A stretch of DNA of 64,000 nucleotides from Candidatus Bathyarchaeota archaeon (GCA_963780185.1 CAWABA010000001.1:1-64000); one strand, 5' to 3'. Shown: positions 179 through 37,500, counted from the stretch's first letter. Numbers and translations are program-made. Notes: generated by a model from the sequence alone, not told the origin.

Positions 179-627
179 AACAGAAAACGCTATTCTCCTC
201 TTAAAAATGTAAACACCGCTTAAATGGTTGTTTGCTTGTCTATTTGGCTCTGCTAGATGCGCCTAACATGTTTCTTTGGGTGAAATTGCCCTTTGCGCCC
301 AACTAACCTTCTATACGTCAACGCGTTTTAAGCTCTAAATCAAGAAATCAACTCAAAACAAACCCCAAGCAAAACCTCCGAGGACGAAAGGGTACCCCAT
401 TTTTACATCAAAAAACAAAGGTAAAAAATGTTTCCCAAAAGCCGACCGACGGGGGGAGGGGGTCATAGTATTTGTGACAAAAACAACCACAAATATGGTT
501 CTGTTCTGCTCGTTGGGTTGAATGCTAAAAATGTCAAAATAGCCCTGTTTTTGAGTTAAATATGTACATAAAGCTGATAAACCCCTTTTTTCACTACATC
601 CCCAATTAAGGCGAGAAGGGAGTAACG

Positions 628-2112
628 ATAGGCTGCGGTATCTTCGGAGCAAAAAACTTTGAAAACCAAACGGTCTTTCCATATGTGTATTGGGGGCTCC
701 GCGCCCAGAACCATCGCGGTCACCAAAGCCACGGGTTTCTAACCTACGACACCAAGTTTCATGTTTGCAAAAGCTTGGATTTGGTTCCGAGGCTCAAAAA
801 CGAGGCTATACATGAATGGTTCGACCGTCTGCCTGGGTCAGTAGGCATAGGCAACGTTCGGTACACTACCTCGGGGAAATGCGATGACACCTCAATCATC
901 GAGGGCACGCAGCCGGTATTCGCTTCTTCAGGCGGAATAAAACTTGCCTTGTCATTTAACGGCAACATCGTTAACACTTTGCCGCTTAAGAAAGAAATGA
1001 TGGAAAACTTTTCAGATTTCTACTTTAACTGCGACTCAGACGTTGTCTGCCACAAACTGCTCCTCGGACTAAAGCAGGGCAAAGACTTAGCGTCTGCGGT
1101 TCGAGCTGTCATGGAAAGCCTCGACGGTGCATTCTCCGTAACGGGATTGACAGGCGACGGCGAATTCTTTGCATTCAAAGACCCGCACGGAATAAAACCC
1201 CTCTGCGCTGGACATGACCCACAAAGCGCAACAGTCGCGTTCTGCTCTGAAACCGTCGGGTTAGACATGAACGGCTTCATACGGGATTTTGAATTAAAAC
1301 CCGGCGAATTGGTTACCGCTTCAAAAGACGGATTCAAACGCACACAAATCATCCAAAACCCACGCGCCGCCTTCTGCTGTTTTGAATACGCTTATTTTGC
1401 TAGGCCCGACTCAAGGTTCGACGGCAAATATGTTTATGAAATCCGAGAGGACTTTGGAAGAAACATCGTTAGAGAGTTTCCTGATGTGGTTCGGGACAGC
1501 GACATCATAATGTCTGTGCCTGAAACAGGCGACGACCCCGCTATGGGCGTCCATGAAGAGTCAGGTCTGCGTTGGGAACGGGCATCGAGGCGGCACCGCT
1601 ACGTTACTGAACGAGCCTTTATACTTCTTAACACGGAGCGCTTCTCAACTATCGACAAGAAAATCAACATTTTAGGCTCCAAAGTAGACGGCAAACGCGT
1701 CATAATAACCGAGGACAGCATAGTACGCGGAGACACAACAAAAGTCATCATAGACAAACTGCGAAAGGCAGGAGCCAAAAAAGTCTACGTCTTCGTCACC
1801 TTCCCCAGAATCATCGGCCCATGCTTCTACGGCATCGACATGTCAACTTACGGGCAACTCATCGGCTCCAAACACAGCGTGGAGCAAATCGCCAAAATCA
1901 TCGGCGCAGACCAAGTATGCTACCAGTCGATTGAAGCATTAGTTAAAGCGACGGAGCAAACAGAAAATGAACTCTGCATGGCATGTATCACTGGTAAGTA
2001 CCCTACGCCCTGTGCTCAAAAAATGGCTGACGCTATGAAAAAGAGGTTCCTTGAAGGCTACGAGGAAAAATCAAGAATCTACGAAACCGAAGAAGTAGAG
2101 CCTAAAGAGTAA
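628..2112 (+). CDS. purF: amidophosphoribosyltransferase; start probably upstream of the track ORF (685), at a non-canonical codon
   Basis: QNHRG, GNVRYTTSG, FNGNIVN, FEYAYFARPDS, EDSIVRGDT (PRT loop), CFYGIDM and CxxC motifs. The Ntn-nucleophile motif CGIFG is in frame at 634-648, upstream of GTG 685; ATA at 628 follows an SD-like AGAAGGGAG. Confidence 0.93.
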   Translation: MGCGIFGAKNFENQTVFPYVYWGLRAQNHRGHQSHGFLTYDTKFHVCKSLDLVPRLKNEAIHEWFDRLPGSVGIGNVRYTTSGKCDDTSIIEGTQPVFASSGGIKLALSFNGNIVNTLPLKKEMMENFSDFYFNCDSDVVCHKLLLGLKQGKDLASAVRAVMESLDGAFSVTGLTGDGEFFAFKDPHGIKPLCAGHDPQSATVAFCSETVGLDMNGFIRDFELKPGELVTASKDGFKRTQIIQNPRAAFCCFEYAYFARPDSRFDGKYVYEIREDFGRNIVREFPDVVRDSDIIMSVPETGDDPAMGVHEESGLRWERASRRHRYVTERAFILLNTERFSTIDKKINILGSKVDGKRVIITEDSIVRGDTTKVIIDKLRKAGAKKVYVFVTFPRIIGPCFYGIDMSTYGQLIGSKHSVEQIAKIIGADQVCYQSIEALVKATEQTENELCMACITGKYPTPCAQKMADAMKKRFLEGYEEKSRIYETEEVEPKE

Positions 2113-2164
2113 CCTATGTCTTTGGCGTTGCCTTGTGGTGTTGCAGTAACACGGTGTAACCTTT

Positions 2165-3580
2165 ATGGATAAAATAGGCGTACTCGTAGTTTCGTACGGC
2201 GCAAGAGAAGTCGCTATGGTTGATGCTTTGCTGCAAAGCAAACGTTACCAAGTGGAACTCTACATCGCTGACAAGCAACGCAACCCCTTTAACGCGGAAA
2301 AAGCAGCAAAACACGTCGTCATCCCGAGCCTTGACGTAGCGGAAATATGCAAGTTCGCCCAAGCAAACAAAGACAAAATCGATTTTGCTCTGGTCGGGTC
2401 AGAAAAACCCATAATAGACGGTGTCCGCGACCAAATCGAAAAAGCCACAGGCATACCCGTCGTCTGTCCAAAGCAGAAGTACGCCATAGAAGAGAGCAAA
2501 GTAGAGCAGCGCCAACTCTTCGCCGAAATAGCGCCAGAAGCTAATCCACGGTTCAAAGTTTTCAGCCCCGCAGACTACAAGGGAACCGCCGACGTCAAAG
2601 GCGCGGTTTACCGCTGGCTAGACGAACTTGACAATCAGGCAGTTGTCAAACCCGACAAGCCTGCCCTGGGAAAAGGTGTGGGCGTCTGGGGCGACCACTT
2701 CGCCAACCGCGAAGAGCTTTTTGAGCATTTCATGTCCAACTTCAAGTACGGCAACGTTATAATTGAGGAGAAAATCGACGGGGAAGAATCCAGCTTCATG
2801 GCTTTCTGCGACGGCAAACACTTCATTGCGCTTCCCGACACACGGGACTACAAACGCGCCTTCGACGACGACCGCGGACCAAACACAGGCGGCATGGGCT
2901 CCTACAAAGACGCCGACGGCAAACTGCCCTTCTTGACAGATGCTGATCGGGAAGCTGAGCTTGCGTTGGGCAACAGGATTTTCAAAGGGTGGAAAGCCAA
3001 AATCAAAGATGACTCCGCGCTCAGAGGTGTCCCGCTTTATCTCGCCTTCATGCATACTGGCCAAGGAATCAAAGTTCTTGAGATTAATAGTCGCCCAGGC
3101 GACCCAGAAATAATTAACCTGCTTGCGCTGATTCAGGACGATTTTGTCGATGTCTGCTTCAAAATGATTGAAGGAAAATTGACAAGCATCAAAATGGAGA
3201 AGGCAGCATCCGTTTTAACCTATAAAGTTCCGCTTGACTACGGGGGCTACTCTGAGGTCTTCCCGAAAAAAGCCGACAAGGCTGAGGCGGACACTCCTGT
3301 TGACCTCTTAAAAGCTGAAGCATTAACTAAAAAATACGGCAGCCACATCCGCGTTTACCCCGGCTCTATGGAGATAAGAGATGGCAAAAACTACGCTCTC
3401 AAATCCCGCGCCGTCGGCGTCTTAGGCATCGGCGAAACAATTGAAGAAGCACGCAACATCAGCCTTGAAGGAGCCAAAGCAATCAGCGGCGGCGGACTAT
3501 GGAACAGAACCGACGTTGCCTCAAAGCAGCATATTGCAAAAGCCATTCGTCACATGGAGAATTTGAGGCGCAAGGCGTGA
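2165..3580 (+). CDS. purD: phosphoribosylamine--glycine ligase
   Basis: VVKPD..ALGKGV, IEEKIDGEESS, DYKRAFDDDRGPNTGGMGSY and EINSRPGDPE motifs; directly follows purF. Confidence 0.92.
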   Translation: MDKIGVLVVSYGAREVAMVDALLQSKRYQVELYIADKQRNPFNAEKAAKHVVIPSLDVAEICKFAQANKDKIDFALVGSEKPIIDGVRDQIEKATGIPVVCPKQKYAIEESKVEQRQLFAEIAPEANPRFKVFSPADYKGTADVKGAVYRWLDELDNQAVVKPDKPALGKGVGVWGDHFANREELFEHFMSNFKYGNVIIEEKIDGEESSFMAFCDGKHFIALPDTRDYKRAFDDDRGPNTGGMGSYKDADGKLPFLTDADREAELALGNRIFKGWKAKIKDDSALRGVPLYLAFMHTGQGIKVLEINSRPGDPEIINLLALIQDDFVDVCFKMIEGKLTSIKMEKAASVLTYKVPLDYGGYSEVFPKKADKAEADTPVDLLKAEALTKKYGSHIRVYPGSMEIRDGKNYALKSRAVGVLGIGETIEEARNISLEGAKAISGGGLWNRTDVASKQHIAKAIRHMENLRRKA

Positions 3581-4659
3581 AACGCATCTTCATTTCCGAC
3601 TGCGAGGGACCAATCAGCAAAAACGACAACGCCTTCGAGTTAGCCTCAAACTTTATTCCAAACGGCGATAGGCTTTTCACGAACGTAAGCAAATACGACG
3701 ACGTGTTAGCTGACGTTTTACACAAACCCGGCTACTCGGCTGGAAGTACCCTGAAGCTTATTTTGCCTTTCTTCAAAGCATACAGCGTGTCGGACAAGAT
3801 GATGGACGAGTTCTCAGCCGACAATATTTTGTTAATCGCTAACAGCCAAACCACGCTCTGCCATGTGCAGGCAGTAGCCGACGCCTTCATTGTTAGCACT
3901 AGCTACGAACACTACATCAAAGCCCTATGCAAAGCCACGGAATTCCCCTACAAAAACACGTACTGCACTCACGTTAGCCTCGACAAATACGGTATCTCCC
4001 CGCGGGAAAGAGGACGATTAAGAGAAGTAGCGCAGGAAATCGCCAAAATGAAAACCATTGACATCCCGCCGACAGCAAAAGCCACAGAAGATTTTTCGCC
4101 AAGCGACCAAGCAACTATTGTACGTTTAAACGAAGTCTTTTGGAATGAAATCCCAAAGATGTTCGTCGGCAAATTCATCAAAGACGTCGTTACCGTCGGC
4201 GGGGAACAAAAAGCCGAGGTAATCCGAGACGCAACAAAACGCCTTGGCAAAGAACTGGCAGACGTCATGTACGTGGGCGACAGCATCACCGACGTGGAAG
4301 CCTTCAAGCTTGTACGAGCCAACGGCGGCTTAACAGTTTCGTTCAACGGCAACGGCTACGCGGTTAAGGACGCTGAAGTCGCGGTTCTGTCCGAAAGCAA
4401 TCTTGTAACAGCTGTCATCGCGGATTTATTTTGCAGGTTTGGAAAAGAAAAAGCCTTCAACGCGGTTCAGAACTGGAATCATGAGGCAATCAAGGAAAGC
4501 GGGGTTGATTCTTCGTTGTTTGGGCTGCTTTCAAGTTTGTATCCTGATGTCTTACCTAAAGCTAAAATAGTGACGGCTCAAAATATGGAAATGCTCATAA
4601 GAGAAAGCAGCGATTTTAGAAAGAAAGTGCGTGGAATAGCCGTTGGGAAACTCGGGTAA
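3577..4659 (+). CDS. HAD-superfamily hydrolase (COG4030/EhaR-like)
   Basis: GTG 3577 overlaps the purD stop (GTGA); FISDCEGPISKNDNAFEL (motif I), VSTSY (motif II), YVGDSITD (motif IV), SFNGNGYA. Confidence 0.75.
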   Translation: MKRIFISDCEGPISKNDNAFELASNFIPNGDRLFTNVSKYDDVLADVLHKPGYSAGSTLKLILPFFKAYSVSDKMMDEFSADNILLIANSQTTLCHVQAVADAFIVSTSYEHYIKALCKATEFPYKNTYCTHVSLDKYGISPRERGRLREVAQEIAKMKTIDIPPTAKATEDFSPSDQATIVRLNEVFWNEIPKMFVGKFIKDVVTVGGEQKAEVIRDATKRLGKELADVMYVGDSITDVEAFKLVRANGGLTVSFNGNGYAVKDAEVAVLSESNLVTAVIADLFCRFGKEKAFNAVQNWNHEAIKESGVDSSLFGLLSSLYPDVLPKAKIVTAQNMEMLIRESSDFRKKVRGIAVGKLG

Positions 4660-4660
4660 A

Positions 4661-5569
4661 ATGACCAAAGCGGAAATAGAAGATACATATGCGGAAGCTT
4701 TCACAGGACTTTTTTGCCGCCTAATAGTTACCGCCGACGATGAGGAAACCCTGCGTAAGGCTGCTGAAGATTCGACTGCAACCCCCTCTGTTGTAATCGG
4801 CAGAACGGAAGGCGGTGTCGAAAGATATCTCACCCGAAACGAAACCCCCGACCAACGTTTAGGCGCAATTTTGCAGTTCTGGGGAGAAATCAACCCTAAA
4901 AAAACCTTTGAGCAATCCCTCAAAAAGTTCGAGACTGAACTTTCCTACCGTATTCGCCAAGACATCTTGGTAAAACCATTCACCGCCGTCTACGACGCCC
5001 TGCCAAACGCCGAGGGCAAACTGGATATGATGGAGACTGTTGGGCACTGCGGCGACGGCTACGAGTGGGTTGAGAAACGCTTTGGCAGAGAAGTCATCGT
5101 GGTTCCTTTGATGGTTCCCGACTTCGTCATAGAACGCTACTTAGGATACGGCCGCGGAGTTATGGGCGGCAACTTTTGGGTCCTGTGCAAAACCAAACAA
5201 GCCCTAAAATCGGCAGGCGAGAAAGCCTTAGCAGCCATCCACAAGGTGCCCGGCGTAGTGACGCCTTTCGATGTATGCTCAGCAGGTTCCAAGCCTGAAA
5301 CTCATTTTCCCAAGATTGGACCCACCACGAACCACCTTTACTGCCCGTCGCTTAAGGAGAGGTTAGGCAAGGAATCCTGTGTTCCCGACGGCGTAGGCTA
5401 CATAGCTGAAGTAGTTTTCGACGGGGCGTCTTTAGAAGCTGTTAAGCAGGCGACCAAGGTAGGAATCGAAGCCGTGCTTGGCGTTGATGGCGTGGTGAAG
5501 GTTTCTGCAGGCAACTACGGGGGCAAACTGGGTGAGTATAAAATAATTTTGAAGGAGTTGTTTTCATGA
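4661..5569 (+). CDS. ftr: formylmethanofuran--tetrahydromethanopterin N-formyltransferase homolog
   Basis: IEDTYAEAF, ETPDQRLG, RIRQDIL, GDGYE, GVMGGNF, SAGSK, GPTTNHLYCPSL and VSAGNYGGKLG are Ftr signatures; ATG 4661 follows the HAD stop with a 1-nt gap. Confidence 0.88.
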   Translation: MTKAEIEDTYAEAFTGLFCRLIVTADDEETLRKAAEDSTATPSVVIGRTEGGVERYLTRNETPDQRLGAILQFWGEINPKKTFEQSLKKFETELSYRIRQDILVKPFTAVYDALPNAEGKLDMMETVGHCGDGYEWVEKRFGREVIVVPLMVPDFVIERYLGYGRGVMGGNFWVLCKTKQALKSAGEKALAAIHKVPGVVTPFDVCSAGSKPETHFPKIGPTTNHLYCPSLKERLGKESCVPDGVGYIAEVVFDGASLEAVKQATKVGIEAVLGVDGVVKVSAGNYGGKLGEYKIILKELFS

Positions 5570-6483
5570 CAAAGTTTGATGTTGTAGGTTTCGGAGCGCT
5601 CAACGTTGACATGCTCTTCAAAGTCGAGCGGTTGGCACGAGCGGAGGAGGAAAGTTTCGTTCAAGATTACACTGAGGCTTGCGGTGGCTCAGCAGCAAAT
5701 ACTATTGTTGGGCTGGCAAGACTCGGCTGCAGAACTGGCTTTATAGGCAAAGTGGCGGATGACCGGGAAGGCAAACTGCAAATTGACTGTTTCAAAAATG
5801 AAGGCGTCGACACAGGAGGCGTCGTCCAAGCGAAACATGGCAAGAGCGGGTCGGTTATGGGGTTCGTTGACAAGAAAGGCGCAAGAGCCCTCTACATCAA
5901 CTCGGGAGTCAACGACGCAATCGAGCCTCGGGAAATAAACTACGGCTACGCTTTTGGGACAGAATTTCTGCATTTCTCATCGTTTGTCGGCGAAAAATCT
6001 TTTCGTGCACAAAAAAAGCTCTTAGGAGCCCTTCCCAACAACGTTAAAGTTAGCTTTGACCCGGGCTCAGTGTACGCCCAGAAGGGGTTCGCAGCTGTTG
6101 AGCCGATAATTCGAAGTTCCTACCTCTTCATGCCTAACGCCGGCGAACTTGAACTCCTAACAGGGGAAGATGACGTCCGCAAAGGCGCCGACTTGATTCT
6201 TGATGCAGGCGTCAAAGTCGTCGCAGTTAAGCTTGGAGATAAAGGCTGCTACGTCACTGATGGAGTAGAACGGCTAAGAATCGAGCCATTCAAAGTCAAA
6301 GTCGTCGATACCACTGGAGCGGGGGACGCTTTCTGCGCGGGATTCCTCTACGGATTAATCAAAAACAAGAGCCTCTTCGAATGCGGGCGATTTGCCAATT
6401 TTGTCGCTTCAAGATGCGTCACCGCGATGGGTGCCCGCTCAGCTTTGCCTTATACTAAAGATTTACAGGAATTTTTTGGTTAA
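5566..6483 (+). CDS. PfkB/ribokinase-family kinase (possible nucleoside kinase)
   Basis: GGSAANT, FIGKVADD..G, SFDPG, PNAGE, VVDTTGAGDAFCAGF; ATGA overlap with ftr. Confidence 0.88.
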   Translation: MTKFDVVGFGALNVDMLFKVERLARAEEESFVQDYTEACGGSAANTIVGLARLGCRTGFIGKVADDREGKLQIDCFKNEGVDTGGVVQAKHGKSGSVMGFVDKKGARALYINSGVNDAIEPREINYGYAFGTEFLHFSSFVGEKSFRAQKKLLGALPNNVKVSFDPGSVYAQKGFAAVEPIIRSSYLFMPNAGELELLTGEDDVRKGADLILDAGVKVVAVKLGDKGCYVTDGVERLRIEPFKVKVVDTTGAGDAFCAGFLYGLIKNKSLFECGRFANFVASRCVTAMGARSALPYTKDLQEFFG

Positions 6484-7284
6484 GCTGTCGATTATGCTTT
6501 GGAAGATTAGTTTTCCGTCGCCGTATTGAAGCATCTGTTGTTGGCGTGTCCAGTCGGGTTGCTGCCACCAATACATGGCTCTTTCTGGGTGAGGCATGAG
6601 CCCGAAGATGTTTCCTTCCTTGTTGCATACGCCTGCGATGTCGTAGAAGGCGCCGTTGGGGTTAGCTGGGTATTTGCCGTCGGCGACTTTGCCGTCTTTG
6701 TCGCAGTAACGGAAAACAACCATGTCGTTGTCGACTAGTTCCGCAAGTAAGGTTTCTTCTTTTTCTTTGGGGAAAAGCAGTCTGCCTTCGCCGTGGGCAA
6801 TCGGCATCCGCAACACTTGGCCAGAGGCGACTTTGTTTGTGAAGGCGCATTTTCCGCGGTTTTCATGCTTGAGGTAAATCCATTGGCATTTGAAGCCTGC
6901 AGGTTCATTGGTTGTCAAGGTGGCTTCGGGGTAGGCGCTTACGCCTTTGAACCCTGGAAGTAACCCGTACTCGACCATTATTTGGAAGCCGTTGCATATG
7001 CCCAGCATCGGTCTGCCTTCGTCGATGAAGGTTTCCATTTCTTTGCCCAGCTTGGCGCTTAGATGACGTGCGAAGATTACTCCTGAACGCACGTAGTCGC
7101 CAAACGAGAAGCCGCCTGGAAAAACCAACACCTGATAATCAAGCAGGCTGTGCAGTTTCGCCAGTTCGTTAACGTGTAGGATGTCGGCTTGAATGCCGAG
7201 TTCTTGGAAAGCCCGCTGGGTTTCCGCGTCACAGTTGGTTCCGCCGACCCGCATAACGCAGACTTTGATTTCTTCCTGCTTCAT
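6463..7284 (-). CDS. purQ: FGAM synthase glutaminase subunit
   Basis: GGTNCD, PGGFSFGDY, LGICNGFQ, PIAHGEG, NPNGA, GLMPHPER; ATG 7284 after GGAGG SD. Confidence 0.95.
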   Translation of the reverse strand: MKQEEIKVCVMRVGGTNCDAETQRAFQELGIQADILHVNELAKLHSLLDYQVLVFPGGFSFGDYVRSGVIFARHLSAKLGKEMETFIDEGRPMLGICNGFQIMVEYGLLPGFKGVSAYPEATLTTNEPAGFKCQWIYLKHENRGKCAFTNKVASGQVLRMPIAHGEGRLLFPKEKEETLLAELVDNDMVVFRYCDKDGKVADGKYPANPNGAFYDIAGVCNKEGNIFGLMPHPERAMYWWQQPDWTRQQQMLQYGDGKLIFQSIIDSLTKKFL

Positions 7285-7285
7285 C

Positions 7286-9667
7286 TTAGGAACCTCCGCC
7301 AAACGTTTTCTTCCAGCTGCGCCGTAGCTCGGCAAGGGAAGCGTCAACAACGGTTTTCGTTTTCAATCCGTTTATGACCAGTCGCTCGTCTTTGGTTACT
7401 GTGCCGATTTGGATGCAGGATTTGTCTTTCATCATCGACTCAAAGTCTTCCTTGTCTTGCTCTGACACTTCTAGCAGAAAACGGCTGTTCGACTCAGAAA
7501 ACAACACAAAATCGTCGCGTTCTAAACCTCTGCCAGGCACTTTGTCTAAATCCAGTTGTAAACCGTATCCGCCTGCAAACGCCATCTCTGCCGCCGCTAC
7601 CGCCAAGCCGCCTTCTGAGAGGTCATGGCATGACCTAACTAAACCCGAGTCTATGGCTTTGGTTACGGTTCTGAAGGTGCGTTTGGCTTTGGCGCCTTTG
7701 ACTTTGGGGACGCTTGCGCCCAAGTAGCCTTTGAGTTTGTAGTATTCTGAGCCGCCGAGTTCGTTTTGTGTTTCGCCTATGATGTAGAGTAGGTTGCCTA
7801 GCGCTTTCAGATCCATCGAAGTGACGTACTGGAGGTTGGGGACGATGCCTACCGCCGTAATCAGCAGCGTAGGCGTGACTGGACCCATCGGGGACTCGTT
7901 GTAGAGGCTGTCTTTTCCCGAGATAAACGGCGTTTTAAACGCCACAGCAAAGTCATAGCATGCTTCACAAGCCCGAACCAGAGAGCCTAAACGCTCCGGC
8001 TTCTCAGGGTTGCCCCAAGTGAAGTTGTCAAGAAGCGCGATTCTTCTGCCCCCCACCGCAACGTTGTTTCGCACTGCCTCATCAATGGCTGAAGCCGCCA
8101 TCCAATACGGGTCAATCTTGCCGTAATTCGGGTTCATGCCGCAGGAAATCGCTAAGCCTTTCCACGAATCGTTAAGAGGCTTGAGGACGGCTGCGTCGTT
8201 TGGTCCAGCGTAGACTCCCTGAAGGGGTTTGAGTGTTGTGTTGCCTTTGACTTCGTGGTCGTAGGTGCGTATGACGCTTTCTTTGCTGGCGATGTTGGGC
8301 GCCGCAAGCAGCTCAAGCAGGGTGTCGGTGAGGTTTTCGGGCGCAGAAAACTGAGGTTCCGTGAAGTTTTGCTTTTCGATGGTGGCTGTTTTCATGCTTT
8401 TGCATGGGTTAAACAGGAAAGCCATGTCCATGTCAGCAACTTTCTCGCCGTTGAAATTAAGCTGGAGCCGACGCTCAGTTGTGAGTGTACCGATCGCCGT
8501 TGCCTCCACGTCTTCTTTTGCGAAAACCTCCATAACACGCTCCAAGTTTTCAGGCGGAACCGTTATGAGCATTCTTTCTTGTGATTCTGAAATGTAAATT
8601 TCCCAAGGCGCCAAACCGCGATGTTTCAGCGGCACCTTGCCCAGGTCGATGGTTACCCCGCAGTCGAATCTTTCGGCTGTCTCGCCAACGGCTGACGATA
8701 ATCCGCCTCCGCCAAGGTCGGTTGTCGCCGACGCAAGCTGCAGGTCGCGGATATCAATTATCGCTCTTTTCACTTTTTCTTCTTCAATCGGGTCGGCGAT
8801 TTGCACGGCTGGACGGGAAATTTCCTCTGATTTCTCGGTTAGTTCTGCGGAAGCGAAGGTTACGCCGTGGATTCCGTCGCGTCCCGTTTTTCCACCTGCT
8901 AAAACCAAGATGTGTTCTGGCTTGGCGTTTTTTGTGAATTTTGCAAGCGGCAGGAGCCCTATGCATCCGCAGTACACGGTGACGTTGCCTGTGTAGCTTT
9001 CGTCGAAGTATATTGCGCCGTTGACTGTGGGGATTCCCATGTTGTTTCCGTAGGCGCTGATGCCTGCGGTTACGCCCATGTAAACGTATTTTGGGTGTTT
9101 TATGCCTGCGGGAAGCTTGTTGTAATCGTAGTCGAGTGGTCCGAATCCTAAAACGTCGGTGCAGGCAATTGGGTCAGCCCACACGCCGAGGATGTCTCGG
9201 ATGACTCCGCCGACTCCCGTGGCTGCTCCGCCGAAAGGTTCTACAGCGGATGGGTGATTGTGAGTTTCAACTTTTGCTGCGATGCCGTAGCCGAGGTCGA
9301 AGCGGACTATGCCTGCGTTGTCTTCGAAGACGCTGAAGCACCAGGGCGCCTTGATTTGTTTGGTGGCTTTTGCAATGTAGGTTTTGAAGAGGCTGTCGAT
9401 TTCTTTGCCGTCCAAAACGATTTTTCCCTTGAAAGTTTTATGGTAACAGTGCTCGGACCATGTTTGACTGATGGTTTGCAACTCCACGTCTGTTGGGTTT
9501 CTGCCTTCGGCTTTGAAGTAGGCTTGGCTGCTCTTCATTTCTTCAAGGCTCAACCCTAACGCTAATTCGTCGCTGGCTTCAACGAGTTGCTGGTCGTTGG
9601 CTTCGGCTAGGGCTGCTTCGTAGAGGGCATAGTCCGTTTTTCGTGGGCGGTAGATGTCGGAGTTCAT
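7286..9667 (-). CDS. purL: FGAM synthase synthetase subunit
   Basis: WSEHCYHKTF, KVETHNHPSAVEPFGGAATGVGGVIRD, GRDGIHG, SESQERM, ISGKDSLYNE, HDLSEGG. Confidence 0.96.
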   Translation of the reverse strand: MNSDIYRPRKTDYALYEAALAEANDQQLVEASDELALGLSLEEMKSSQAYFKAEGRNPTDVELQTISQTWSEHCYHKTFKGKIVLDGKEIDSLFKTYIAKATKQIKAPWCFSVFEDNAGIVRFDLGYGIAAKVETHNHPSAVEPFGGAATGVGGVIRDILGVWADPIACTDVLGFGPLDYDYNKLPAGIKHPKYVYMGVTAGISAYGNNMGIPTVNGAIYFDESYTGNVTVYCGCIGLLPLAKFTKNAKPEHILVLAGGKTGRDGIHGVTFASAELTEKSEEISRPAVQIADPIEEEKVKRAIIDIRDLQLASATTDLGGGGLSSAVGETAERFDCGVTIDLGKVPLKHRGLAPWEIYISESQERMLITVPPENLERVMEVFAKEDVEATAIGTLTTERRLQLNFNGEKVADMDMAFLFNPCKSMKTATIEKQNFTEPQFSAPENLTDTLLELLAAPNIASKESVIRTYDHEVKGNTTLKPLQGVYAGPNDAAVLKPLNDSWKGLAISCGMNPNYGKIDPYWMAASAIDEAVRNNVAVGGRRIALLDNFTWGNPEKPERLGSLVRACEACYDFAVAFKTPFISGKDSLYNESPMGPVTPTLLITAVGIVPNLQYVTSMDLKALGNLLYIIGETQNELGGSEYYKLKGYLGASVPKVKGAKAKRTFRTVTKAIDSGLVRSCHDLSEGGLAVAAAEMAFAGGYGLQLDLDKVPGRGLERDDFVLFSESNSRFLLEVSEQDKEDFESMMKDKSCIQIGTVTKDERLVINGLKTKTVVDASLAELRRSWKKTFGGGS

Positions 9668-9915
9668 CGCTGGTCCTCAAAGGTTACAGTGTAGTTGTCT
9701 TTGGTTGGGTTTGCGAGGAGGCGTTTGCTCATTTCTTCCGTTTTCGCCTTTGCCTCTGCAGCCGTTGCTACGTCAAATGTGACGGTGTAGACTTTGCTTA
9801 CGTCTACGGCTTCTACTTTGTAGCCGAGTTCTTTTAGAAGATGTGCTGTTGTTTCTCCTTCAGGGTTGCTGTGGCCTGGCTTTAGGCTAACTTCGATTTT
9901 GGCTCGATATTTCAT
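9664..9915 (-). CDS. purS: FGAM synthase PurS subunit
   Basis: MKYRAKIEVSLKPGHSNPEGET...LLANP; 83 aa; stop overlaps the purL start. Confidence 0.92.
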   Translation of the reverse strand: MKYRAKIEVSLKPGHSNPEGETTAHLLKELGYKVEAVDVSKVYTVTFDVATAAEAKAKTEEMSKRLLANPTKDNYTVTFEDQR

Positions 9916-9972
9916 AAAACCGTAAATATCGCTAGAGGATTTAAACGCTTTCGACAAAAAAACCGCAAGACT

Positions 9973-11052
9973 TTACGTCAAAACCAGCCTTTTGTTTTTG
10001 TAAGTTACCTCAACCGTGTGCCTGCCAGTTACTTTACCTATCAATTCAGGCTTTCCGCCGTCTTGCTCCAGCATGCTCATGGCTTTGTCGACTTCCGATT
10101 TGTCAACAATTATACCAAAACCCCAACCCATGTTGAACGTTTTGAACATTTCCTCGTCCGAAACGCGGTAACCAAGCTCAGACGCGGTTCTTTGGATTAA
10201 TCCGAATATGGGTTGCGGTTTGAAGTTGGTGAATTCGAAGCCTATTCCAGGTGAGTAATTGGCGAGGTTGGTGAATTTCATGTAGCCGTCGCCTGTGATG
10301 TGTACTGCCGCCTTCACTTTGACTTTGCTGGCTACTTTAAGAAGCGGCTTAACATAGATTTTCGTCGGCACCAACGTTTCAAGCACAACTTCCCGATCCA
10401 AGCCTTCTGGAACATCGTTCGGCTCGTATTTTCCTCCCCACTGCTTAAACAGGATTTTCCTCACCATCGTTAAGCCGTTGCTATGCAGTCCGCTGCTTGC
10501 TAAACCGATTATCGGGTCTTCTGGCTTGATGTTTTCGCCAGTTATGATTTCTTGCCGCTCCACAGTGCCGACCGAGGCAACAACCATGTCGAAGCCTGCG
10601 TTGTCAACTAAGCCCTTTATTATTTCTGCTACGTCGCCTGTTTCGCCGCCTGTAACTGGGCACTCCGCTTCAGCCGCACCCTGAATAATTCCTTTCAGCC
10701 ACTCATTTACAAGGAAGGGTTCACTGGCTTGCGCGTGAATGTTGTCGGCTATTGCGAGGGGTCGGGCTCCTGAACGGATAACGTCGTTGACAGCCATCGC
10801 CACCGCGTCGACGCCTATGGTGTCATATTTGCCTGCTAGTTGCGCGAGAAGAACTTTGGTGCCTACACCTTCGATGACGAGGTCTAGGAAGGTGTTTTCT
10901 CCGACTGGAAAAATGTTGCCGTAGGGCAGACGCATCACGTTGCCGAAGCGGCTGTGCTTGTAGGTTTCCTGCAGGTTTTTTAGGGCTTTTTTTGATTCGA
11001 CGCGTTGTGCTCGGTTTACGCCTGCGTCGGTGTAAGTGAAGTTTTTAGGCAA
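9973..11052 (-). CDS. purM: AIR synthetase (phosphoribosylformylglycinamidine cyclo-ligase)
   Basis: TYTDAGV, EGVGTK, GGETG, GLASSGLHSNG, HITGDG, EMFKTFNMGWG. Confidence 0.95.
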   Translation of the reverse strand: MPKNFTYTDAGVNRAQRVESKKALKNLQETYKHSRFGNVMRLPYGNIFPVGENTFLDLVIEGVGTKVLLAQLAGKYDTIGVDAVAMAVNDVIRSGARPLAIADNIHAQASEPFLVNEWLKGIIQGAAEAECPVTGGETGDVAEIIKGLVDNAGFDMVVASVGTVERQEIITGENIKPEDPIIGLASSGLHSNGLTMVRKILFKQWGGKYEPNDVPEGLDREVVLETLVPTKIYVKPLLKVASKVKVKAAVHITGDGYMKFTNLANYSPGIGFEFTNFKPQPIFGLIQRTASELGYRVSDEEMFKTFNMGWGFGIIVDKSEVDKAMSMLEQDGGKPELIGKVTGRHTVEVTYKNKRLVLT

Positions 11053-14864: not shown

Positions 14865-15767
14865 ATGTCAACGGATTCAGAAGACTTCAAAGTGACGCCT
14901 GGCAAAAAAGTCAGCTTGAAAGATTACGATTCAGGTTGGATTCCGAAATGGGCTAAGAAACTGGAGGAAAAAGAGGACAAAAAAGCGGTTAAACTGCAGG
15001 CACAGGAAATGCTTGAATTTAACCGACAGAAACTGGTAAAGATGCAGGATCTGTTTTGGGCAAACAGCACTTACTCGATGCTTATCGTTCTCCAAGGCAT
15101 GGATGCGGCGGGAAAAGACGGCACTATACGACACGTCATGTCGGGGGTTAACCCTCAGGGATGCCAAGTTACAGGTTTCAAAGCCCCGTGCGAAGATGAG
15201 TTGATGCATGATTTTCTCTGGCGGAACTCGAAGGCTCTTCCAGAAAAGGGCATCATAGGCATTTTTAACCGTTCATACTACGAAGACGTGCTAATCGTTA
15301 AGGTTCGACCAGAAGTTCTGCAGAGGGAGAAGCTGCCGCAGACGCTGATGGGAAAGCAGGTTTGGAATCAGCGGTACGAGGACATAAACATGTTCGAGCG
15401 CCACTTGGTTCGGAACGGAACGGTTGTGTTGAAGTTTTATCTGAATCTTTCAAAGGAACATCAGAAACAGCGGCTACTCAAGCGGCTTGAAGACCCCGAC
15501 AAGAACTGGAAGTTCTCAGTGAACGATCTTTCCGAACGCTCAAAATGGGCTGATTACTTGGAGGCATACGAAGAAATGCTTAATGCAACGAGCACCGAGT
15601 GGGCGCCATGGTACATCATTCCCGCCGACAAGAAATGGGTCACACATGCATCAATCTCCGAAATTATAGTTTCCCAAATCAAGAAACTTGACTTAAAATA
15701 CCCCGTCTTAAGCAAGGACCAACTTGCGGCGCTGGAGAAGGCAAAGGCTGAGCTTAAAAAAGAGTAA
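14865..15767 (+). CDS. ppk2: polyphosphate kinase 2 family (class III-like) polyP:nucleotide phosphotransferase
   Basis: LQGMDAAGKDGTI, GVNPQG, HDFLWR, FNRSYYEDVL, KNWKFS, APWYIIPADKKW. Confidence 0.93.
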   Translation: MSTDSEDFKVTPGKKVSLKDYDSGWIPKWAKKLEEKEDKKAVKLQAQEMLEFNRQKLVKMQDLFWANSTYSMLIVLQGMDAAGKDGTIRHVMSGVNPQGCQVTGFKAPCEDELMHDFLWRNSKALPEKGIIGIFNRSYYEDVLIVKVRPEVLQREKLPQTLMGKQVWNQRYEDINMFERHLVRNGTVVLKFYLNLSKEHQKQRLLKRLEDPDKNWKFSVNDLSERSKWADYLEAYEEMLNATSTEWAPWYIIPADKKWVTHASISEIIVSQIKKLDLKYPVLSKDQLAALEKAKAELKKE

Positions 15768-15778
15768 ACGACGCAGCT

Positions 15779-17365
15779 CTACGGGTTTGGGGTGGGCGTG
15801 ACGACGCAGTGGACGTCCAACTGTTTTTTGAAGGCTTCGTAGAACGCCTGCTTGTTCTGGATAACGCTCCACTCTTCGAAGCTGCAGTCCGAGTCAGAGT
15901 AGAACGTTAGCAAAACTTGGTCTTTGTTAACTTTAACAAATTCAGCCTTCTTAACTAACCCAGTGTGGCTTCGATCAAGCTTCTCTGCGAATCTTAGAAA
16001 CGTCGATAGAATGGCGATGCTCTGCTTGGTTTTTTCGTCCAGCCCCGACGCTTTCATGGCTTTTTTTGAAGGCAATTTTTTCCTGTGGAATCTTGCGATG
16101 TTGCCCATTATCTGGGTTTCTTTGCGGTCAAAACCGAGGAGTTCAGCGTTGCAGATGATGTATTGGGAGTGAAGTTGATGGTCGTTGAATGAGAGGAAGT
16201 CGCCGACGTCATGCAGCAAAGCAGCGTACCTTAAAAGTTCTTTTTCGTTCTCTCCCATGCTGTGAAGCCCAATTGCTTTGGCGCTGTCGAAAAGCTGAGT
16301 AGACAACGCGGCTACGGCTTCGGAGTGTTTTTCATCGAAGTTGCAGGATCTTCCCAAATGCAAGGCGCTTCGGTTGCGCATCGGGGTCTTTTGGAGTTCA
16401 CGGAAACCCTCATACTTCGACAAGTAATCGACGAGCAACCCATCCCGCAGCTCACGGTGGCTAACGTTGATCTCTTCCAAGCCTAACTCCTCCATAACCG
16501 CCTCCATTATGGCTGCCCCCGCAATTATGATGTCGGCTCGGTCAGGGTTGATGGCTGGCAGTCTTCTTCTTTCTTCAAGCGGCAGGAAGCAGAGGAGGGG
16601 CGCCAACTTTTTCAGGTTTTTCCTTGATAACGTTAACCCGTTGCCGTTGGCGTTCTTCTTGATTACTTTGTTTGTGATTTCCGCCAAGTTAATGATTGTG
16701 CCTGATGATCCCCATGCCAGCCTGACTCCGTTCTCTTGGACTTTTGCCTTGGCTACTCGGACCTTGCTGCATGCGTATTGTTTTATCTGTTTGTAAGTGC
16801 TGTTTGCCACTGGCCCAGCCCATCCTTCGCCTATGAACCGAGCAGTCAGCCTAATCGCTCCTAGCCTGAGGCTGTTCGCGTAAAAGCATTGGTATTGGTT
16901 TCCGATGCAGATTTCTGTGCTGCCGCCTCCCAAATCTATGAAGACGGCTTTTTCCTCGCCGATGTCTACCCCGCTTGACACGCCGAGGCAGATTAAGCGG
17001 GCTTCCTCCTCGCCTGAAATCACTTTCACGTTGAGCCCAGTTTCTTCGAGGAGTTTTTGGAGAAATTCAGATTGGTTTTGCGCTTCCCGAATCGCCGAAG
17101 TTCCCACGGCTATTATTTCAGTGGCGCCGTAGGTTTTGGCTAATTCAACGAATTTTCCGCAGACAAAGATGGCGCGTTCCATCGCGGCTGGTTTAAGCAG
17201 GTTGTCTTTGAATTCGTCTTCGCCTAAACGGACAACTTCTTTCTCTTGGCTGATAATGGTGTAGGAGAAATTTGGGTTTATTCTTACAACTAACAGGCGA
17301 GCGGCGTTTGTGCCGATGTCTACGAAACCGACTATTTTCTCAGCAGTTTTCACCGACTCTTCCAT
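15779..17365 (-). CDS. ppx: exopolyphosphatase Ppx/GppA with C-terminal HD domain
   Basis: DIGTNAARL, GTSAIREA, ISGEEEARL, DLGGGSTE, LRDGLL, AALLHDVG, ARFHRK. Confidence 0.92.
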   Translation of the reverse strand: MEESVKTAEKIVGFVDIGTNAARLLVVRINPNFSYTIISQEKEVVRLGEDEFKDNLLKPAAMERAIFVCGKFVELAKTYGATEIIAVGTSAIREAQNQSEFLQKLLEETGLNVKVISGEEEARLICLGVSSGVDIGEEKAVFIDLGGGSTEICIGNQYQCFYANSLRLGAIRLTARFIGEGWAGPVANSTYKQIKQYACSKVRVAKAKVQENGVRLAWGSSGTIINLAEITNKVIKKNANGNGLTLSRKNLKKLAPLLCFLPLEERRRLPAINPDRADIIIAGAAIMEAVMEELGLEEINVSHRELRDGLLVDYLSKYEGFRELQKTPMRNRSALHLGRSCNFDEKHSEAVAALSTQLFDSAKAIGLHSMGENEKELLRYAALLHDVGDFLSFNDHQLHSQYIICNAELLGFDRKETQIMGNIARFHRKKLPSKKAMKASGLDEKTKQSIAILSTFLRFAEKLDRSHTGLVKKAEFVKVNKDQVLLTFYSDSDCSFEEWSVIQNKQAFYEAFKKQLDVHCVVTPTPNP

Positions 17366-19674
17366 ATCAGCACCAATTTCTTTGAGAAGACCCCTTCAAA
17401 CAAATCTTTCTTCTTATTAAAAGCCCGCTCTTCCAGCGTTAATTTTGTTTCGGATAAGCATTCGACAGTTATCTTTTTTGTGCCCATTTTAAGGTTTACT
17501 GATCTCACGTTTGATTGGTGAGTGTAATCTAAGCCGTCTGCCGCGCGTAAAAGACTGGATAGAACCTTTATGACTTTTACGGTTTCGCGGTCTAAACCCC
17601 GCAGGTTGAAGTGTTTTTGTTTAGGCAAACCCTTGCGATGATAACGCGCCACGCTTGCCACAATCCGTCGCTCCCGAGACGAAAAAGGCAACTGCGTGTT
17701 GTTGAGGATAAGTCTGGCTGTTACTTTATGGTGCCCCTGTCTGCCCTCCAGCAAGCCTGCATCATGCATTATGGAAGCACATTCAAGCCAGCATCTTTCA
17801 CGTTCACCCAAATTATGCAGCTTGGCTAATCCATCGAAGAAGTCTAAAGCAAGCTTGGTGACCTGCCTGCAGTGGGCTAAGTCTTGCCCGTATCCTTTGG
17901 CAAATTCTTTGGACGCGTCGACTTTTGCTTTGCAGTTTTCAAGTGCAGCCTTTTCTCTGGCGGCGTCTTCCTCAAGTATTTCGTCGATAGAAACGCCTTG
18001 AAGCAGCATCTGGGAAAAGCTTTCAGGTAAACCTTTTCTCCTAAGAGCGTCGGCGGCGGCTTCAACATCATAATCTACACGAATCATCTCGACCTTGAAG
18101 GGATTAAACTTCAAAATTGCGTAGGCTGCTTGATGGTTTGCGTCGCCGGGTCTTCCTACGCTTCCAGGGTTGACGAAGGAGGCTCCATCTACTTTCCGAC
18201 AGAGTTGCACATGAGAGTGCCCCACGATTATCACGTCGGCTTTCGCGGCTTCGGCGAGTTTTTTTAGCCGTTCAATTGGAGTGTCCTCGGTAATGTGTTC
18301 ATCAATCGATTCGGGGCTTCCATGTGTTACGAGCAGTTTCACGCCTCCGATTTGGAGCCTGAGTTCTCGCGGCAAGGAGCTAAGGTAGCTTTGGCATGAT
18401 TTGGCTAGCTCTTTTTTGGTGAAGTTGAAAGCAGCCCTTTTTTCGCTTTTGGCTTTGGGTTCGCTTTCGATGACTTCGGCATCATAGTTTCCCAGAACGC
18501 TTAGAACGTTTTTTTCGCATAGCAGCTCAACAACATCGTTCGGGTAGGCGCCGTATCCTATGGAGTCTCCTGCGTTGAGGAAAAGATCGACGCCTCGTTC
18601 TTCAGCGTCTTGAATAACCGCTTCTAAAGCTTGGAGATTAGCATGGACGTCTGAGAGCACCGCGATTTTAGCATCTGGGTTCGCCAGAATCTGGCTTGTT
18701 TTTTCCTCATTCACTGTTGATCCCTCTTTGGTCGTTGCCTTGAGTTGTTCAAAAAAGTTTTGTTTTTGGTTTTCTTCCCAAAGCTGAACAAAGCTTCCAT
18801 AATGATCTTTTCTCTGGGCTACTATGTAAGCCAGAAAACTCTGTATTGCTTGCTCAAACTTTGCGGCGTCGAATTTTTTGTCGGCTTTCGCTTTGGTTGC
18901 CTCGATGAATTTGGGTAAACTGTCGATCCAGACTTCCAGGTCATGTTTTTCGCCCAGTATGTCTTGGTAGGTTTTTACTGTTTCGATTTCGTTTTTCAGC
19001 TTGTCTTTGTATAGTGGCGCGAAGAACTCCATGGTGTAGCGAAGCTTCTTTGCATGAATCCTCATTTCATGATGCTTCTGGTTTGCGTTCTCTACATGGA
19101 CATATTTTTCCAGCGAAAGAAAATCGTCAAGTCTGAAGCATATTTGCCAAAGGGCTTTTTTAAGCACTTGATCGGGGTTAAAAGTCAGGTTTGGCTTTTC
19201 CGCGAGGACTTTTCCGCAGAAGCCGCCCATGGTTTCCAAAACATCTGACGCCTTAAGCTTGTCTATCCCGCTGGTGACCAAAGGCTGAACCGCATCTCTG
19301 TTGCTTACGCGGTCGCGGAGCAGGATGTTAACGTATTTTTTTTCTTCCGAGCCGATGTTTTTTAAGTATTTTTTCACGAATGCTATTTGGACGTCAAGGT
19401 CTCTTGCCTCTCCAAGCAGGCGAGTGACTTTTTTTATTTTTTTTGTCCATTTTTTGTATTTCTTGCGTGGAAAACAGGGTTCGAACAACGGCAGTGCGGC
19501 TCTGATTTTGCGTGAGGTGACGCGTGTTTTGTGGACGCATTCTATGTCTTGGTTCTCTATGACGCCGTCAACACTTTCTTCGAACCCGCCGAGCAAATCG
19601 ACGATTGCTTTGCAGCCGAATTGGCAGTAGCTTGTGTCGGCGTCACGTTTGCTGCTTTTAGGTGGGGCGTTCAT
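17350..19674 (-). CDS. CHAD + calcineurin-like metallophosphoesterase + Ppx-type HD domain fusion
   Basis: CHAD: VHKTRVTSRKIR, LGEARDLDV, HEMRIHAKKLRY, QDILGEKHD. Metallophosphoesterase: SDVHAN, GDSIGYG, GNYD, HGSP, GHSH, NPGSVG. HD: IMHDAG, ARYHRK, ADGLD. Confidence 0.85.
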   Translation of the reverse strand: MNAPPKSSKRDADTSYCQFGCKAIVDLLGGFEESVDGVIENQDIECVHKTRVTSRKIRAALPLFEPCFPRKKYKKWTKKIKKVTRLLGEARDLDVQIAFVKKYLKNIGSEEKKYVNILLRDRVSNRDAVQPLVTSGIDKLKASDVLETMGGFCGKVLAEKPNLTFNPDQVLKKALWQICFRLDDFLSLEKYVHVENANQKHHEMRIHAKKLRYTMEFFAPLYKDKLKNEIETVKTYQDILGEKHDLEVWIDSLPKFIEATKAKADKKFDAAKFEQAIQSFLAYIVAQRKDHYGSFVQLWEENQKQNFFEQLKATTKEGSTVNEEKTSQILANPDAKIAVLSDVHANLQALEAVIQDAEERGVDLFLNAGDSIGYGAYPNDVVELLCEKNVLSVLGNYDAEVIESEPKAKSEKRAAFNFTKKELAKSCQSYLSSLPRELRLQIGGVKLLVTHGSPESIDEHITEDTPIERLKKLAEAAKADVIIVGHSHVQLCRKVDGASFVNPGSVGRPGDANHQAAYAILKFNPFKVEMIRVDYDVEAAADALRRKGLPESFSQMLLQGVSIDEILEEDAAREKAALENCKAKVDASKEFAKGYGQDLAHCRQVTKLALDFFDGLAKLHNLGERERCWLECASIMHDAGLLEGRQGHHKVTARLILNNTQLPFSSRERRIVASVARYHRKGLPKQKHFNLRGLDRETVKVIKVLSSLLRAADGLDYTHQSNVRSVNLKMGTKKITVECLSETKLTLEERAFNKKKDLFEGVFSKKLVLIWKSR

Positions 19675-29596: not shown

Positions 29597-29630
29597 AATC
29601 ACGAAACCGCGATGAAAGGAGAACTAAAAC

Positions 29631-31973: not shown

Positions 31974-31975
31974 GA

Positions 31976-32017
31976 ATGGTTTGAAAAAACCATCTATCTT
32001 TTCTTTTTTGTTTTCTC
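31976..32017 (+). terminator. GAAA-tetraloop hairpin plus T-tract after the pstS-scaffoldin pair
   Basis: ATGGTTT-GAAA-AAACCAT (31976-31993) followed by CTTTTCTTTTTTGTTTT. Confidence 0.6.
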
Positions 32018-32117
32018 TAAATTTTGTTCAATTCAATTCTGTAACTCAATTTCTGTTAAGAAAAACGCGACTGGTTTCCTCATACTGACAGATTCTTTGG
32101 AGATTCTCCGGATTTCG

Positions 32118-32169
32118 TCTATATAGAGCATGCTGTTCTCAATATTTTATTTTGGATAGGGCTAAATAA
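32118..32169 (+). promoter_or_regulatory. duplicated promoter cassette, copy 1
   Basis: TCTATATAGAG..TGCTGTTCTCAATATTTTATTTTGGATAGG(G)CTAAATAA is near-identical to 34609-34659. Confidence 0.75.
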
Positions 32170-32214
32170 ATTCAGTTAGGAGTTAACTTAGCAAAGAAGG
32201 GAGAGACGTGTTAT

Positions 32215-33252: not shown

Positions 33253-33256
33253 ATTC

Positions 33257-34546: not shown

Positions 34547-34608
34547 CGGAAAACGCCAGAAGGGACAACTTCAACTTCTTTTAACAAAATTCTTTTTCGC
34601 TTGATTTT

Positions 34609-34659
34609 TCTATATAGAGTCTGCTGTTCTCAATATTTTATTTTGGATAGGCTAAATAA
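34609..34659 (+). promoter_or_regulatory. duplicated promoter cassette, copy 2
   Basis: Near-identical to 32118-32169. Confidence 0.75.
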
Positions 34660-34701
34660 CGTTAGTTTGAAGATAAAACACGGAAAAGGGAGAGAAATTG
34701 T

Positions 34702-37464: not shown

Positions 37465-37500
37465 GCGAAAAAAAAAATGAAGTCTCGGGAGATGAACTGA

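Follow-up and report, generated by a model that had tools for sequence, protein, structure and literature searches.

The window analysed here is a 64,000-nucleotide stretch of a Candidatus Bathyarchaeota archaeon genome assembly (GCA_963780185.1, CAWABA010000001.1:1-64000). According to open reading frame (ORF) calls and family scans, its region 628–11052 is filled by two convergent gene sets, purF-purD-HAD-ftr-pfkB on the plus strand (HAD, haloacid dehalogenase-like) and purQ, purL, purS and purM on the minus strand. The genes for steps 1, 2, 4 and 5 of purine synthesis, as named in the initial annotation, were all matched by the family scans, and a divergent paralog of the formyltransferase Ftr, which moves formyl groups between methanofuran and tetrahydromethanopterin (H4MPT), lies among them. 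On the basis of the sequence comparisons reported below, we consider it probable that this paralog, here termed Ftr2, is a glycinamide ribonucleotide (GAR) formyltransferase, the enzyme of step 3, with formyl-H4MPT or formyl-methanofuran as the donor. The genes of the region are as follows:

628..2112, plus strand: purF, amidophosphoribosyltransferase, step 1 (TIGR01134, 313 bits, cut-off 350; ORF listed from GTG 685)
2165..3580, plus strand: purD, GAR synthetase, step 2, making the proposed substrate (GARS_N, GARS_A and GARS_C; TIGR00877, 244 bits)
3577..4659, plus strand: HAD-IB-like gene of the EhaR / AF1437 family (ORF listed from 3499, likely start GTG 3577)
4661..5569, plus strand: Ftr2, divergent Ftr paralog, candidate GAR formyltransferase (ORF listed from TTG 4643)
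5566..6483, plus strand: PfkB ribokinase-like kinase, EhaT homolog (PF00294, 181 bits; best equivalog ribokinase, 171 bits, cut-off 300)
6463..7350, minus strand: purQ, glutaminase subunit of formylglycinamidine ribonucleotide (FGAM) synthase, step 4, using the proposed product (NF002252, 316 bits, cut-off 298)
7286..9667, minus strand: purL, FGAM synthase, step 4 (TIGR01736, 699 bits)
9664..9957, minus strand: purS, step 4 (family scans)
9973..11052, minus strand: purM, aminoimidazole ribonucleotide synthetase, step 5 (TIGR00878, 262 bits, cut-off 236)

The tight arrangement of purD, HAD, ftr and pfkB first described for this locus was confirmed, with 4-nt overlaps or a 1-nt gap at the junctions. 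In particular, GTG 3577, the likely HAD start in view of where homologous HAD proteins begin, forms GTGA together with the purD stop, ATG 4661 of ftr lies 1 nt past the HAD stop, and ATG 5566 of pfkB overlaps the ftr stop as ATGA. Translated from ATG 4661, Ftr2 is 302 aa long, the length found in most relatives. The plus-strand genes thus appear to be packed for translational coupling.

The step-3 gap and the Ftr2 clade

The genome assembly (2.75 Mb in 13 contigs, 93.5% complete) yielded no match to PF00551 (PurN family) over its whole length, and the best genome-wide PurT match scored 51 bits against a cut-off of 502, inside a 920-aa ATP-grasp frame that is probably, at a guess, carbamoyl-phosphate synthase. 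Both purF and purD are single-copy genes, and a pair of adjacent purP genes accounts for the second formylation. The step-3 gap in this genome is real, and the lack of purN and purT initially reported holds genome-wide. A second, canonical Ftr (Ftr1), the presence of which was to be checked, was found at 285 kb of contig C1, beside eRF1, and shares 36% identity with Ftr2. FwdA and Mch were matched on contig C6, and no fwd or mch family was matched in the 30 other window ORFs of at least 200 aa, in keeping with the initial description of the neighbourhood. Since canonical Ftr, FwdA and Mch sit elsewhere in the genome, the operon Ftr is an extra paralog and not the catabolic enzyme. The FwdA match (C6:316494-318148) is split over two frames with internal stops: the gene for formylmethanofuran dehydrogenase subunit A is either frameshifted, misassembled or broken.

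Ftr2 shows the two-lobe Ftr architecture at full length (PF01913, 149 bits; PF02741, 177 bits), and its residues 7–307 align to the Archaeoglobus fulgidus structure 1M5H (E 6e-51). Family scans detected Ftr domains only, with no PurN or PurT homology. The score on the TIGR03119 equivalog model (227 bits) falls under the cut-off of 292.6, while the score on the NF002554 subfamily model (331.8 bits) is over the cut-off of 297. Compared with the canonical enzymes of known structure (1FTR/2FHJ of Methanopyrus kandleri, 1M5H and 1M5S of Methanosarcina barkeri), Ftr2 is alike in its architecture and catalytic Glu but differs in forming a separate clade with its own diagnostic residues, and in residing in a purine operon instead of among one-carbon (C1) pathway genes. 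FhcD (6S6Y) of the bacterial formyltransferase/hydrolase complex illustrates a use of the Ftr family outside methanogenesis; however, it is a weaker match (E 3.5e-26), lies on the Ftr1 side of the family and works with methylofuran in an FhcABCD complex, and no such partners adjoin Ftr2.

The phylogeny recommended along with the initial annotation set the operon copy in a clade of its own, with support of 98–99. In a tree of 50%-identity representatives, a 19-row group including the operon copy was separated from a 40-row group including Ftr1 (support 99). An 81-row tree, obtained by a quick search with no bootstraps, gave an Ftr2 clade of 39 rows and an Ftr1 clade of 35 rows (Shimodaira-Hasegawa-like approximate likelihood ratio test, SH-aLRT, 98 and 99, respectively). 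A profile (A1) built on 12 Ftr2-type sequences cleanly separated Ftr2-type (323–471 bits) from Ftr1-type proteins (at most 290 bits), and recovered one Ftr2-type (392–434 bits) and one Ftr1-type protein in each of five named genomes, namely Archaeoglobus sp., Methanobacterium sp., Methanobrevibacter thaueri, ANME-1 GoMg1 (ANME, anaerobic methanotrophic archaea) and a Methanophagales genome. Sequence comparison therefore supports well the view of Ftr2 as a distinct clade, separate from canonical Ftr1. The clade takes in EhaS of Methanobacteria and Ftr2 of Archaeoglobi and ANME-1, and a scan of named loci added Geoglobus and Ferroglobus as well as genomes labelled Hadarchaeota, Hydrothermarchaeota, Altiarchaeota, Hodarchaeota and Methanocellales.

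E256 of Ftr2 (numbering of the 308-aa ORF) aligns with the catalytic E246 of 1M5H, corresponding to Glu245 in M. kandleri numbering, which we take to be the catalytic residue of Ftr. This position is Glu in 39 of 39 Ftr2 rows and in at least 90% of the 35 Ftr1 rows, and 26 other positions reach this level of conservation (90% or more) in the two clades alike. Several residues conserved at 92% or more are instead specific to Ftr2 (308-aa ORF numbering against 1M5H numbering), including R105 for G93, C136 for F124, W179 for F167, E219 for G209 and P227 for A218, together with W80 and a missing PGG loop near residue 199; a 9-residue insert after W80 is a further difference. A substrate that carries a phosphate, as GAR does, would require a newly invariant Arg of this kind.

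Some further features of the Ftr family were recorded. A third, long-branch group of 7 rows in the 81-row tree falls outside Ftr1 and Ftr2; it includes P0176, P0184, P0197, P0198, P0237 and P0246, two of its clusters are labelled Asgard (Promethearchaeota), and the P0176 cluster holds proteins labelled as hypothetical proteins of Promethearchaeota. In the same tree, Ftr2 of Methanobacteria (L207, L210) is nested in Bathyarchaeia Ftr2 (support 94–97), apart from other Euryarchaeota, which hints at transfer of a HAD-Ftr2-PfkB module between Bathyarchaeia and Methanobacteria. Among the long Ftr-family representatives (460–655 aa), P0165 and P0170, both on the Ftr1 side, carry a fused domain of FwdA-like (amidohydrolase) or FwdC-like (GXGXG) type and look like single-chain formyltransferase/hydrolase arrangements; the other long ones (592 and 460 aa) have Ftr domains only. 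No Ftr-PfkB or Ftr-HAD fusion was found among these representatives, so that the three-gene module receives no backing from fusions.

Distribution and gene context of Ftr2

The Ftr2 profile, PF00551 and TIGR01142 were run against three phylum samples, totalling 533 genomes and with Methanococci and Methanopyri outside them. In the Thermoproteota sample (201 genomes, completeness of at least 80%), Ftr2 was detected in 22 genomes and in G108, in which the end of a contig truncates it right after a HAD-like gene. All of these 23 genomes are Bathyarchaeia and none has a PurN or PurT-like protein. Five Bathyarchaeia were without Ftr2: two have a PurT-like protein (G002 and G116, each with PurD and a 457–460-aa protein whose best models are PurT, at 259 and 245 bits, below cut-offs), two a PurN-like protein (G036 and G068), and one lacks PurD (G020). 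The 23 other Thermoproteota with Ftr1 only comprised 11 with PurN, 9 with a PurT-like protein and 3 with neither, two of the latter being without PurD and the third 80% complete. G177, a Bathyarchaeia genome of family f8 (98% complete), showed Ftr2 fragments at contig ends and no Ftr1-type match, and may carry a purine-linked Ftr copy without the canonical one.

In the phylum of Methanobacterium (151 genomes), 149 genomes carry an Ftr2-type protein, and neither PF00551 nor PurT (E at most 1e-50) was matched in any genome of the sample. In the phylum of Archaeoglobus (Halobacteriota, 181 genomes), Ftr2 was found in 75 genomes, 71 of which have neither PurN nor PurT, none PurT and 4 PurN; PurN or PurT was present in 101 of the 106 genomes without Ftr2, the remaining 5 having neither. 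The 11 Halobacteriota with PurT but no PurN are all without Ftr2. The raw Fisher test (p = 7e-39) greatly overstates independence, the genomes being kin. Ftr2 is strongly anti-correlated with PurN and PurT, almost to mutual exclusion, as had been anticipated for a step-3 enzyme (PurN or PurT in 0/23, 0/149 and 4/75 of the Ftr2-bearing genomes).

Since kinship inflates raw counts, local swaps in two Bathyarchaeia families are the informative cases. Family f6 includes both a genus with the Ftr2 operon (g18) and a genus with a PurT-like gene (g17). In family f7, G068 has a purF-like gene and purD followed, after a 2-nt gap, by a 278-aa PurN-like gene (TIGR00639, 76.6 bits, below cut-off yet the best model). 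The slot after purD is thus occupied by HAD-ftr2-pfkB in the window and in G028, and by a PurN-like gene in f7. The folate-dependent PurN (PF00551) would catalyse the same reaction as proposed for Ftr2, also with a pterin-bound formyl group, but has an unrelated fold, uses N10-formyl-tetrahydrofolate and was not found in the genome of the window. PurT catalyses the same step in archaea without folates and never occurs with Ftr2 in our samples; it is an ATP-grasp enzyme acting with free formate and ATP, whereas Ftr2 has no nucleotide-binding domain.

Linkage to purine genes is conserved within Bathyarchaeia. In 80 loci with Ftr2 of 74–91% identity, HAD was found in 80, purD and pfkB in 78 each and purF in 76, genes being missing mostly where short contigs end. 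In 8 more distant Bathyarchaeia loci, HAD adjoins Ftr2 in 7 and purD is seen in 6, the seventh contig beginning at HAD. Of the conserved linkage expected from the initial annotation, the part regarding Bathyarchaeia therefore stood (HAD 80/80, purD 78/80), but the linkage did not extend elsewhere (purD 0/72). Ftr2 is linked to pur genes almost exclusively in Bathyarchaeia, and the case leans mainly on distribution and not on cross-phylum synteny. Loci related to the operon came from Bathyarchaeia of soil or peat metagenomes.

In Methanobacterium and Methanobrevibacter, Ftr2 ends the eha hydrogenase operon, placed between a 341–350-aa protein without Pfam match and a PfkB kinase. The eha-operon Ftr2 of Methanobacteria scores 430 bits on the Ftr2 profile, the HAD-like protein of the window shares 41% identity (E 8e-105) with the Methanobacterium protein encoded before Ftr2, and the PfkB of the window 45% (E 1e-95) with the one encoded after it. 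By sequence, the HAD-like protein, Ftr2 and PfkB are accordingly homologs of EhaR, EhaS and EhaT. EhaS of Methanothermobacter and Ftr2 of Archaeoglobales, M. kandleri and ANME fall in the same clade as Ftr2 of the window, but EhaRST close the eha operon in Methanobacteria, whereas the window homologs sit inside a purine operon; none of the scanned window ORFs gave a match to a hydrogenase or polyferredoxin family. The order HAD-PfkB-Ftr2 was seen in two Halobacteriota genomes, HAD and PfkB are together in Archaeoglobus with Ftr2 elsewhere, and Ftr2 of Archaeoglobus, ANME-1 and Methanophagales lies amid unrelated genes.

Proposed reaction and alternative explanations

From gene order, homology, clade membership, distribution and the conserved catalytic residue, we infer a reaction, a donor and an acceptor. 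Ftr2, retaining the Ftr fold and the catalytic Glu, would take the formyl group of a methanogenic C1 carrier and place it on the primary amine of GAR, with formylglycinamide ribonucleotide (FGAR) as the product. GAR would occupy the position of methanofuran, as its glycyl CH2-NH2 resembles the aminomethyl group of methanofuran, N5-formyl-H4MPT made by Mch would donate the formyl group, and the ATP-driven PurLQS would pull FGAR formation forward. Because the Ftr reaction is close to equilibrium, a formyl transfer from amide to amine is plausible. Formyl-methanofuran is the alternative donor, and it would fit the link with Eha, which is regarded as a supplier of reduced ferredoxin for anabolic CO2 reduction; of the two candidates, N5-formyl-H4MPT is the somewhat likelier. 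The purine C8 of Methanosphaera stadtmanae is reported, in the accessible text of Brown et al. (PMC3261824), to derive from acetate C2 whether formate is present or not, which fits a carrier-bound donor better than free formate. The HAD-like and ribokinase-like genes would belong to the same purine/C1 module without being needed for step 3. The interpretation of the operon Ftr as the step-3 enzyme, already advanced in the initial annotation, passed every computational test run and is supported by these sequence-based results.

The groups in which Ftr2 occurs include those for which the step has been described as missing. The accessible text of Brown et al. (PMC3261824) reports GAR formyltransferase to be missing from Archaeoglobi, four Methanobacteria and M. 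kandleri. The step-3 enzyme has accordingly been listed as unidentified since at least 2011 (PMC3261824), and was still called so in 2022 in the part of Chadwick et al. available (PMC9012536). The latter authors also describe an uncharacterised Ftr2 in ANME-1, ANME-2a/b, Archaeoglobales, M. kandleri and M. marburgensis, which our Ftr2 clade matches, and in the accessible text the missing step and the Ftr2 paralogs are both described and not connected (PMC9012536). No paper linking Ftr2 or EhaS to GAR was found in the full-text literature, subscription journals and supplements lying outside the search, and under the names ftrII and Ftr2 Chadwick et al. was the sole relevant full-text paper.

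Several points weigh against Ftr2 being the step-3 enzyme. Formyl-H4MPT has a low group-transfer potential. The sampled genomes are related, so that the counts inflate the number of independent events; Ftr2 and PurN occur together in 4 of the 75 Ftr2-bearing Halobacteriota; and 5 of the 181 Halobacteriota are without Ftr2, PurN and PurT, no Ftr2 being found around the HAD-like genes of these five. In 72 named Ftr2 loci outside Bathyarchaeia, purD was never within 5 kb (0/72) and purM was found in 3 (3/72). Moreover, Ftr2 is accompanied in three phyla by the HAD-like and PfkB genes, an association that a one-enzyme model leaves unexplained. Brown et al. held formyl-H4MPT unlikely as a formyl donor, and Kaster et al. 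treat EhaS and EhaT of Methanothermobacter as Eha subunits on account of co-transcription, according to the accessible parts of both articles (PMC3261824; PMC3087415).

Ftr2 could instead be an anabolic formylmethanofuran:H4MPT isoenzyme that shuttles formyl groups between carriers, for instance releasing formate for PurP, with GAR being formylated by an unidentified formate-dependent ligase or by the second PurP. The full Ftr architecture, the catalytic Glu and the NF002554 score would be expected of such an enzyme, although the TIGR03119 equivalog cut-off is missed. Two adjacent purP genes are present in the genome of the window and also in the Archaeoglobus and Methanophagales genomes examined, and formate is a known purine precursor in Methanothermobacter, as stated in the accessible text of two sources (PMC3087415; bioRxiv 10.1101/2022.12.30.522236). 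However, only one PurP is present in the Methanobacterium genome that was checked, which weakens the second PurP as a general GAR ligase, and the 11 Halobacteriota having PurT without PurN also rely on formate and have no Ftr2. Furthermore, a carrier-to-carrier enzyme is not expected to vanish exactly where PurT or PurN is present, nor would it be swapped in an operon for a PurN-like gene. We therefore regard the isoenzyme as unlikely.

A second alternative is that the HAD-like protein, Ftr2 and PfkB act jointly on some other ribose-containing substrate, in cofactor metabolism or salvage, the anti-correlation with PurN and PurT being due to shared ancestry and to H4MPT-only C1 metabolism. The three genes are indeed found together in Bathyarchaeia, at the eha operon end of Methanobacteria and in two Halobacteriota, PfkB has ribokinase-type motifs, and the HAD-like gene is present in 67 of the 75 Ftr2-bearing Halobacteriota against 9 of the 106 others. 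In some Halobacteriota, moreover, HAD and Ftr2 flank genes for fructose bisphosphatase, phosphofructokinase and aldolase. On the contrary, family f7 keeps the HAD-like gene and PfkB without Ftr2, beside FolD and a split purH, and Ftr2 is alone in most Archaeoglobaceae and ANME-1 loci, hence the three genes are separable. A general H4MPT housekeeping role is likewise countered by H4MPT-using lineages that have a PurT-like gene and no Ftr2. A joint action on another substrate is thus, in our opinion, improbable.

Finally, the three proteins are very improbable as true Eha subunits or accessory proteins: the genes are co-transcribed with ehaA-R in M. thermautotrophicus (EhaR, EhaS and EhaT; accessible text of PMC3087415) and keep the same order in the two Methanobacteria genomes examined, but the window copies lie between purD and purQ with no hydrogenase family matched in the scanned ORFs, no hydrogenase genes were seen beside any scanned Halobacteriota locus, and all three belong to soluble-enzyme families.

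Returning to Ftr2 as the GAR formyltransferase, it would represent a third, structurally unrelated class of GAR transformylase, fed by methanogenic C1 carriers, which would close the gap and make EhaS a purine enzyme; we consider this wider proposal slightly more credible than its opposite. In a bolder extension, EhaR and EhaT would be further unrecognised steps of a carrier-dependent purine/C1 module. If Ftr2 has this function, the step-3 gap would be closed in Methanobacteria, Archaeoglobi, Methanopyrus, ANME-1 and Bathyarchaeia, purine synthesis would be tied directly to the H4MPT/methanofuran C1 pool, and the co-transcription with the anabolic hydrogenase Eha in Methanobacteria would be explained. 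The widespread annotation of these proteins as formylmethanofuran--H4MPT formyltransferase or Eha subunits would have to be corrected, and a gap in the metabolic models of methanogens and Bathyarchaeia would be filled. The groups affected include Methanobrevibacter and Methanosphaera of gut and rumen, the industrially used Methanothermobacter, the sulfate-reducing Archaeoglobus and the methane-oxidising ANME-1, and Ftr2 would be an essential enzyme specific to methanogens, to which nothing corresponds in animals or most bacteria. Having a specific candidate with a clear assay makes this long-missing step testable.

Companion genes and other features of the window

The HAD-like gene was confined to Bathyarchaeia in the Thermoproteota sample. 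The PurT-type genomes G002 and G116 lack it, and the PurN-type family f7 keeps it with PfkB-FolD; the HAD/PfkB pair therefore tracks carrier-dependent C1 and purine metabolism and not Ftr2 itself. The AlphaFold2 (AF2) model of the HAD-like protein (pLDDT, predicted local distance difference test, 91.6) has as its best Protein Data Bank match the uncharacterised A. fulgidus protein AF1437 (1Y8A, TM 0.74/0.90), followed by SerB phosphoserine phosphatases, ThrH and MtnX. The motifs that are invariant in the HAD-like protein (DxEGP, STSY, K, GDSITD and FNGN) indicate a working phosphotransferase site. As a lead from the structural model, the protein might be a phosphoserine phosphatase supplying serine-derived C1 units, consistent with the SerB-like fold and the absence from PurT-type genomes; only one other HAD-type ORF was retrieved from the genome by a crude motif screen. 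PfkB keeps its ribokinase-type motifs and passes no equivalog cut-off. A joint structure prediction of the HAD-like protein (26–386), PfkB and Ftr2 gave a score of 0.00 and carries no weight either way.

In three Halobacteriota loci (L229:6930-10840, L233:7148-13591 and L234:7442-12240), the HAD-like gene and Ftr2 flank sugar-phosphate genes, coding for an archaeal fructose bisphosphate aldolase/phosphatase, a phosphofructokinase and a class II aldolase-like protein. With such neighbours, the module may be connected with the supply of pentoses or C1 units.

As regards purF, the cysteine motif of PurF (..IGCGIFG..) is encoded in frame upstream of the listed start GTG 685, and no ATG, GTG or TTG precedes the CGIFG motif within window positions 595–700. 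The start is thus likely ATA 628, before which a GGAG-like stretch occurs, and position 628 as initially proposed appears sensible. Gene callers restricted to common start codons would clip purF and give it the false look of a Cys-less PurF'; the latter was ruled out here, CGIFG lying in frame just 5' of the listed start.

Elsewhere in the window, a polyphosphate cluster (PPK2, Ppx/GppA, a CHAD-metallophosphatase-Ppx fusion and PPK1) was found at 14865–21820. An S-adenosylmethionine synthetase of the bacterial/eukaryotic MetK type (PF00438, PF02772 and PF02773) is encoded at 44922–46127; archaea usually carry another type of this enzyme. Large plus-strand ORFs follow each other in series at 27908–38757, most of them without Pfam match, with PKD and cohesin domains present, and this series coincides with a strongly negative GC skew (-0.22 to -0.14).

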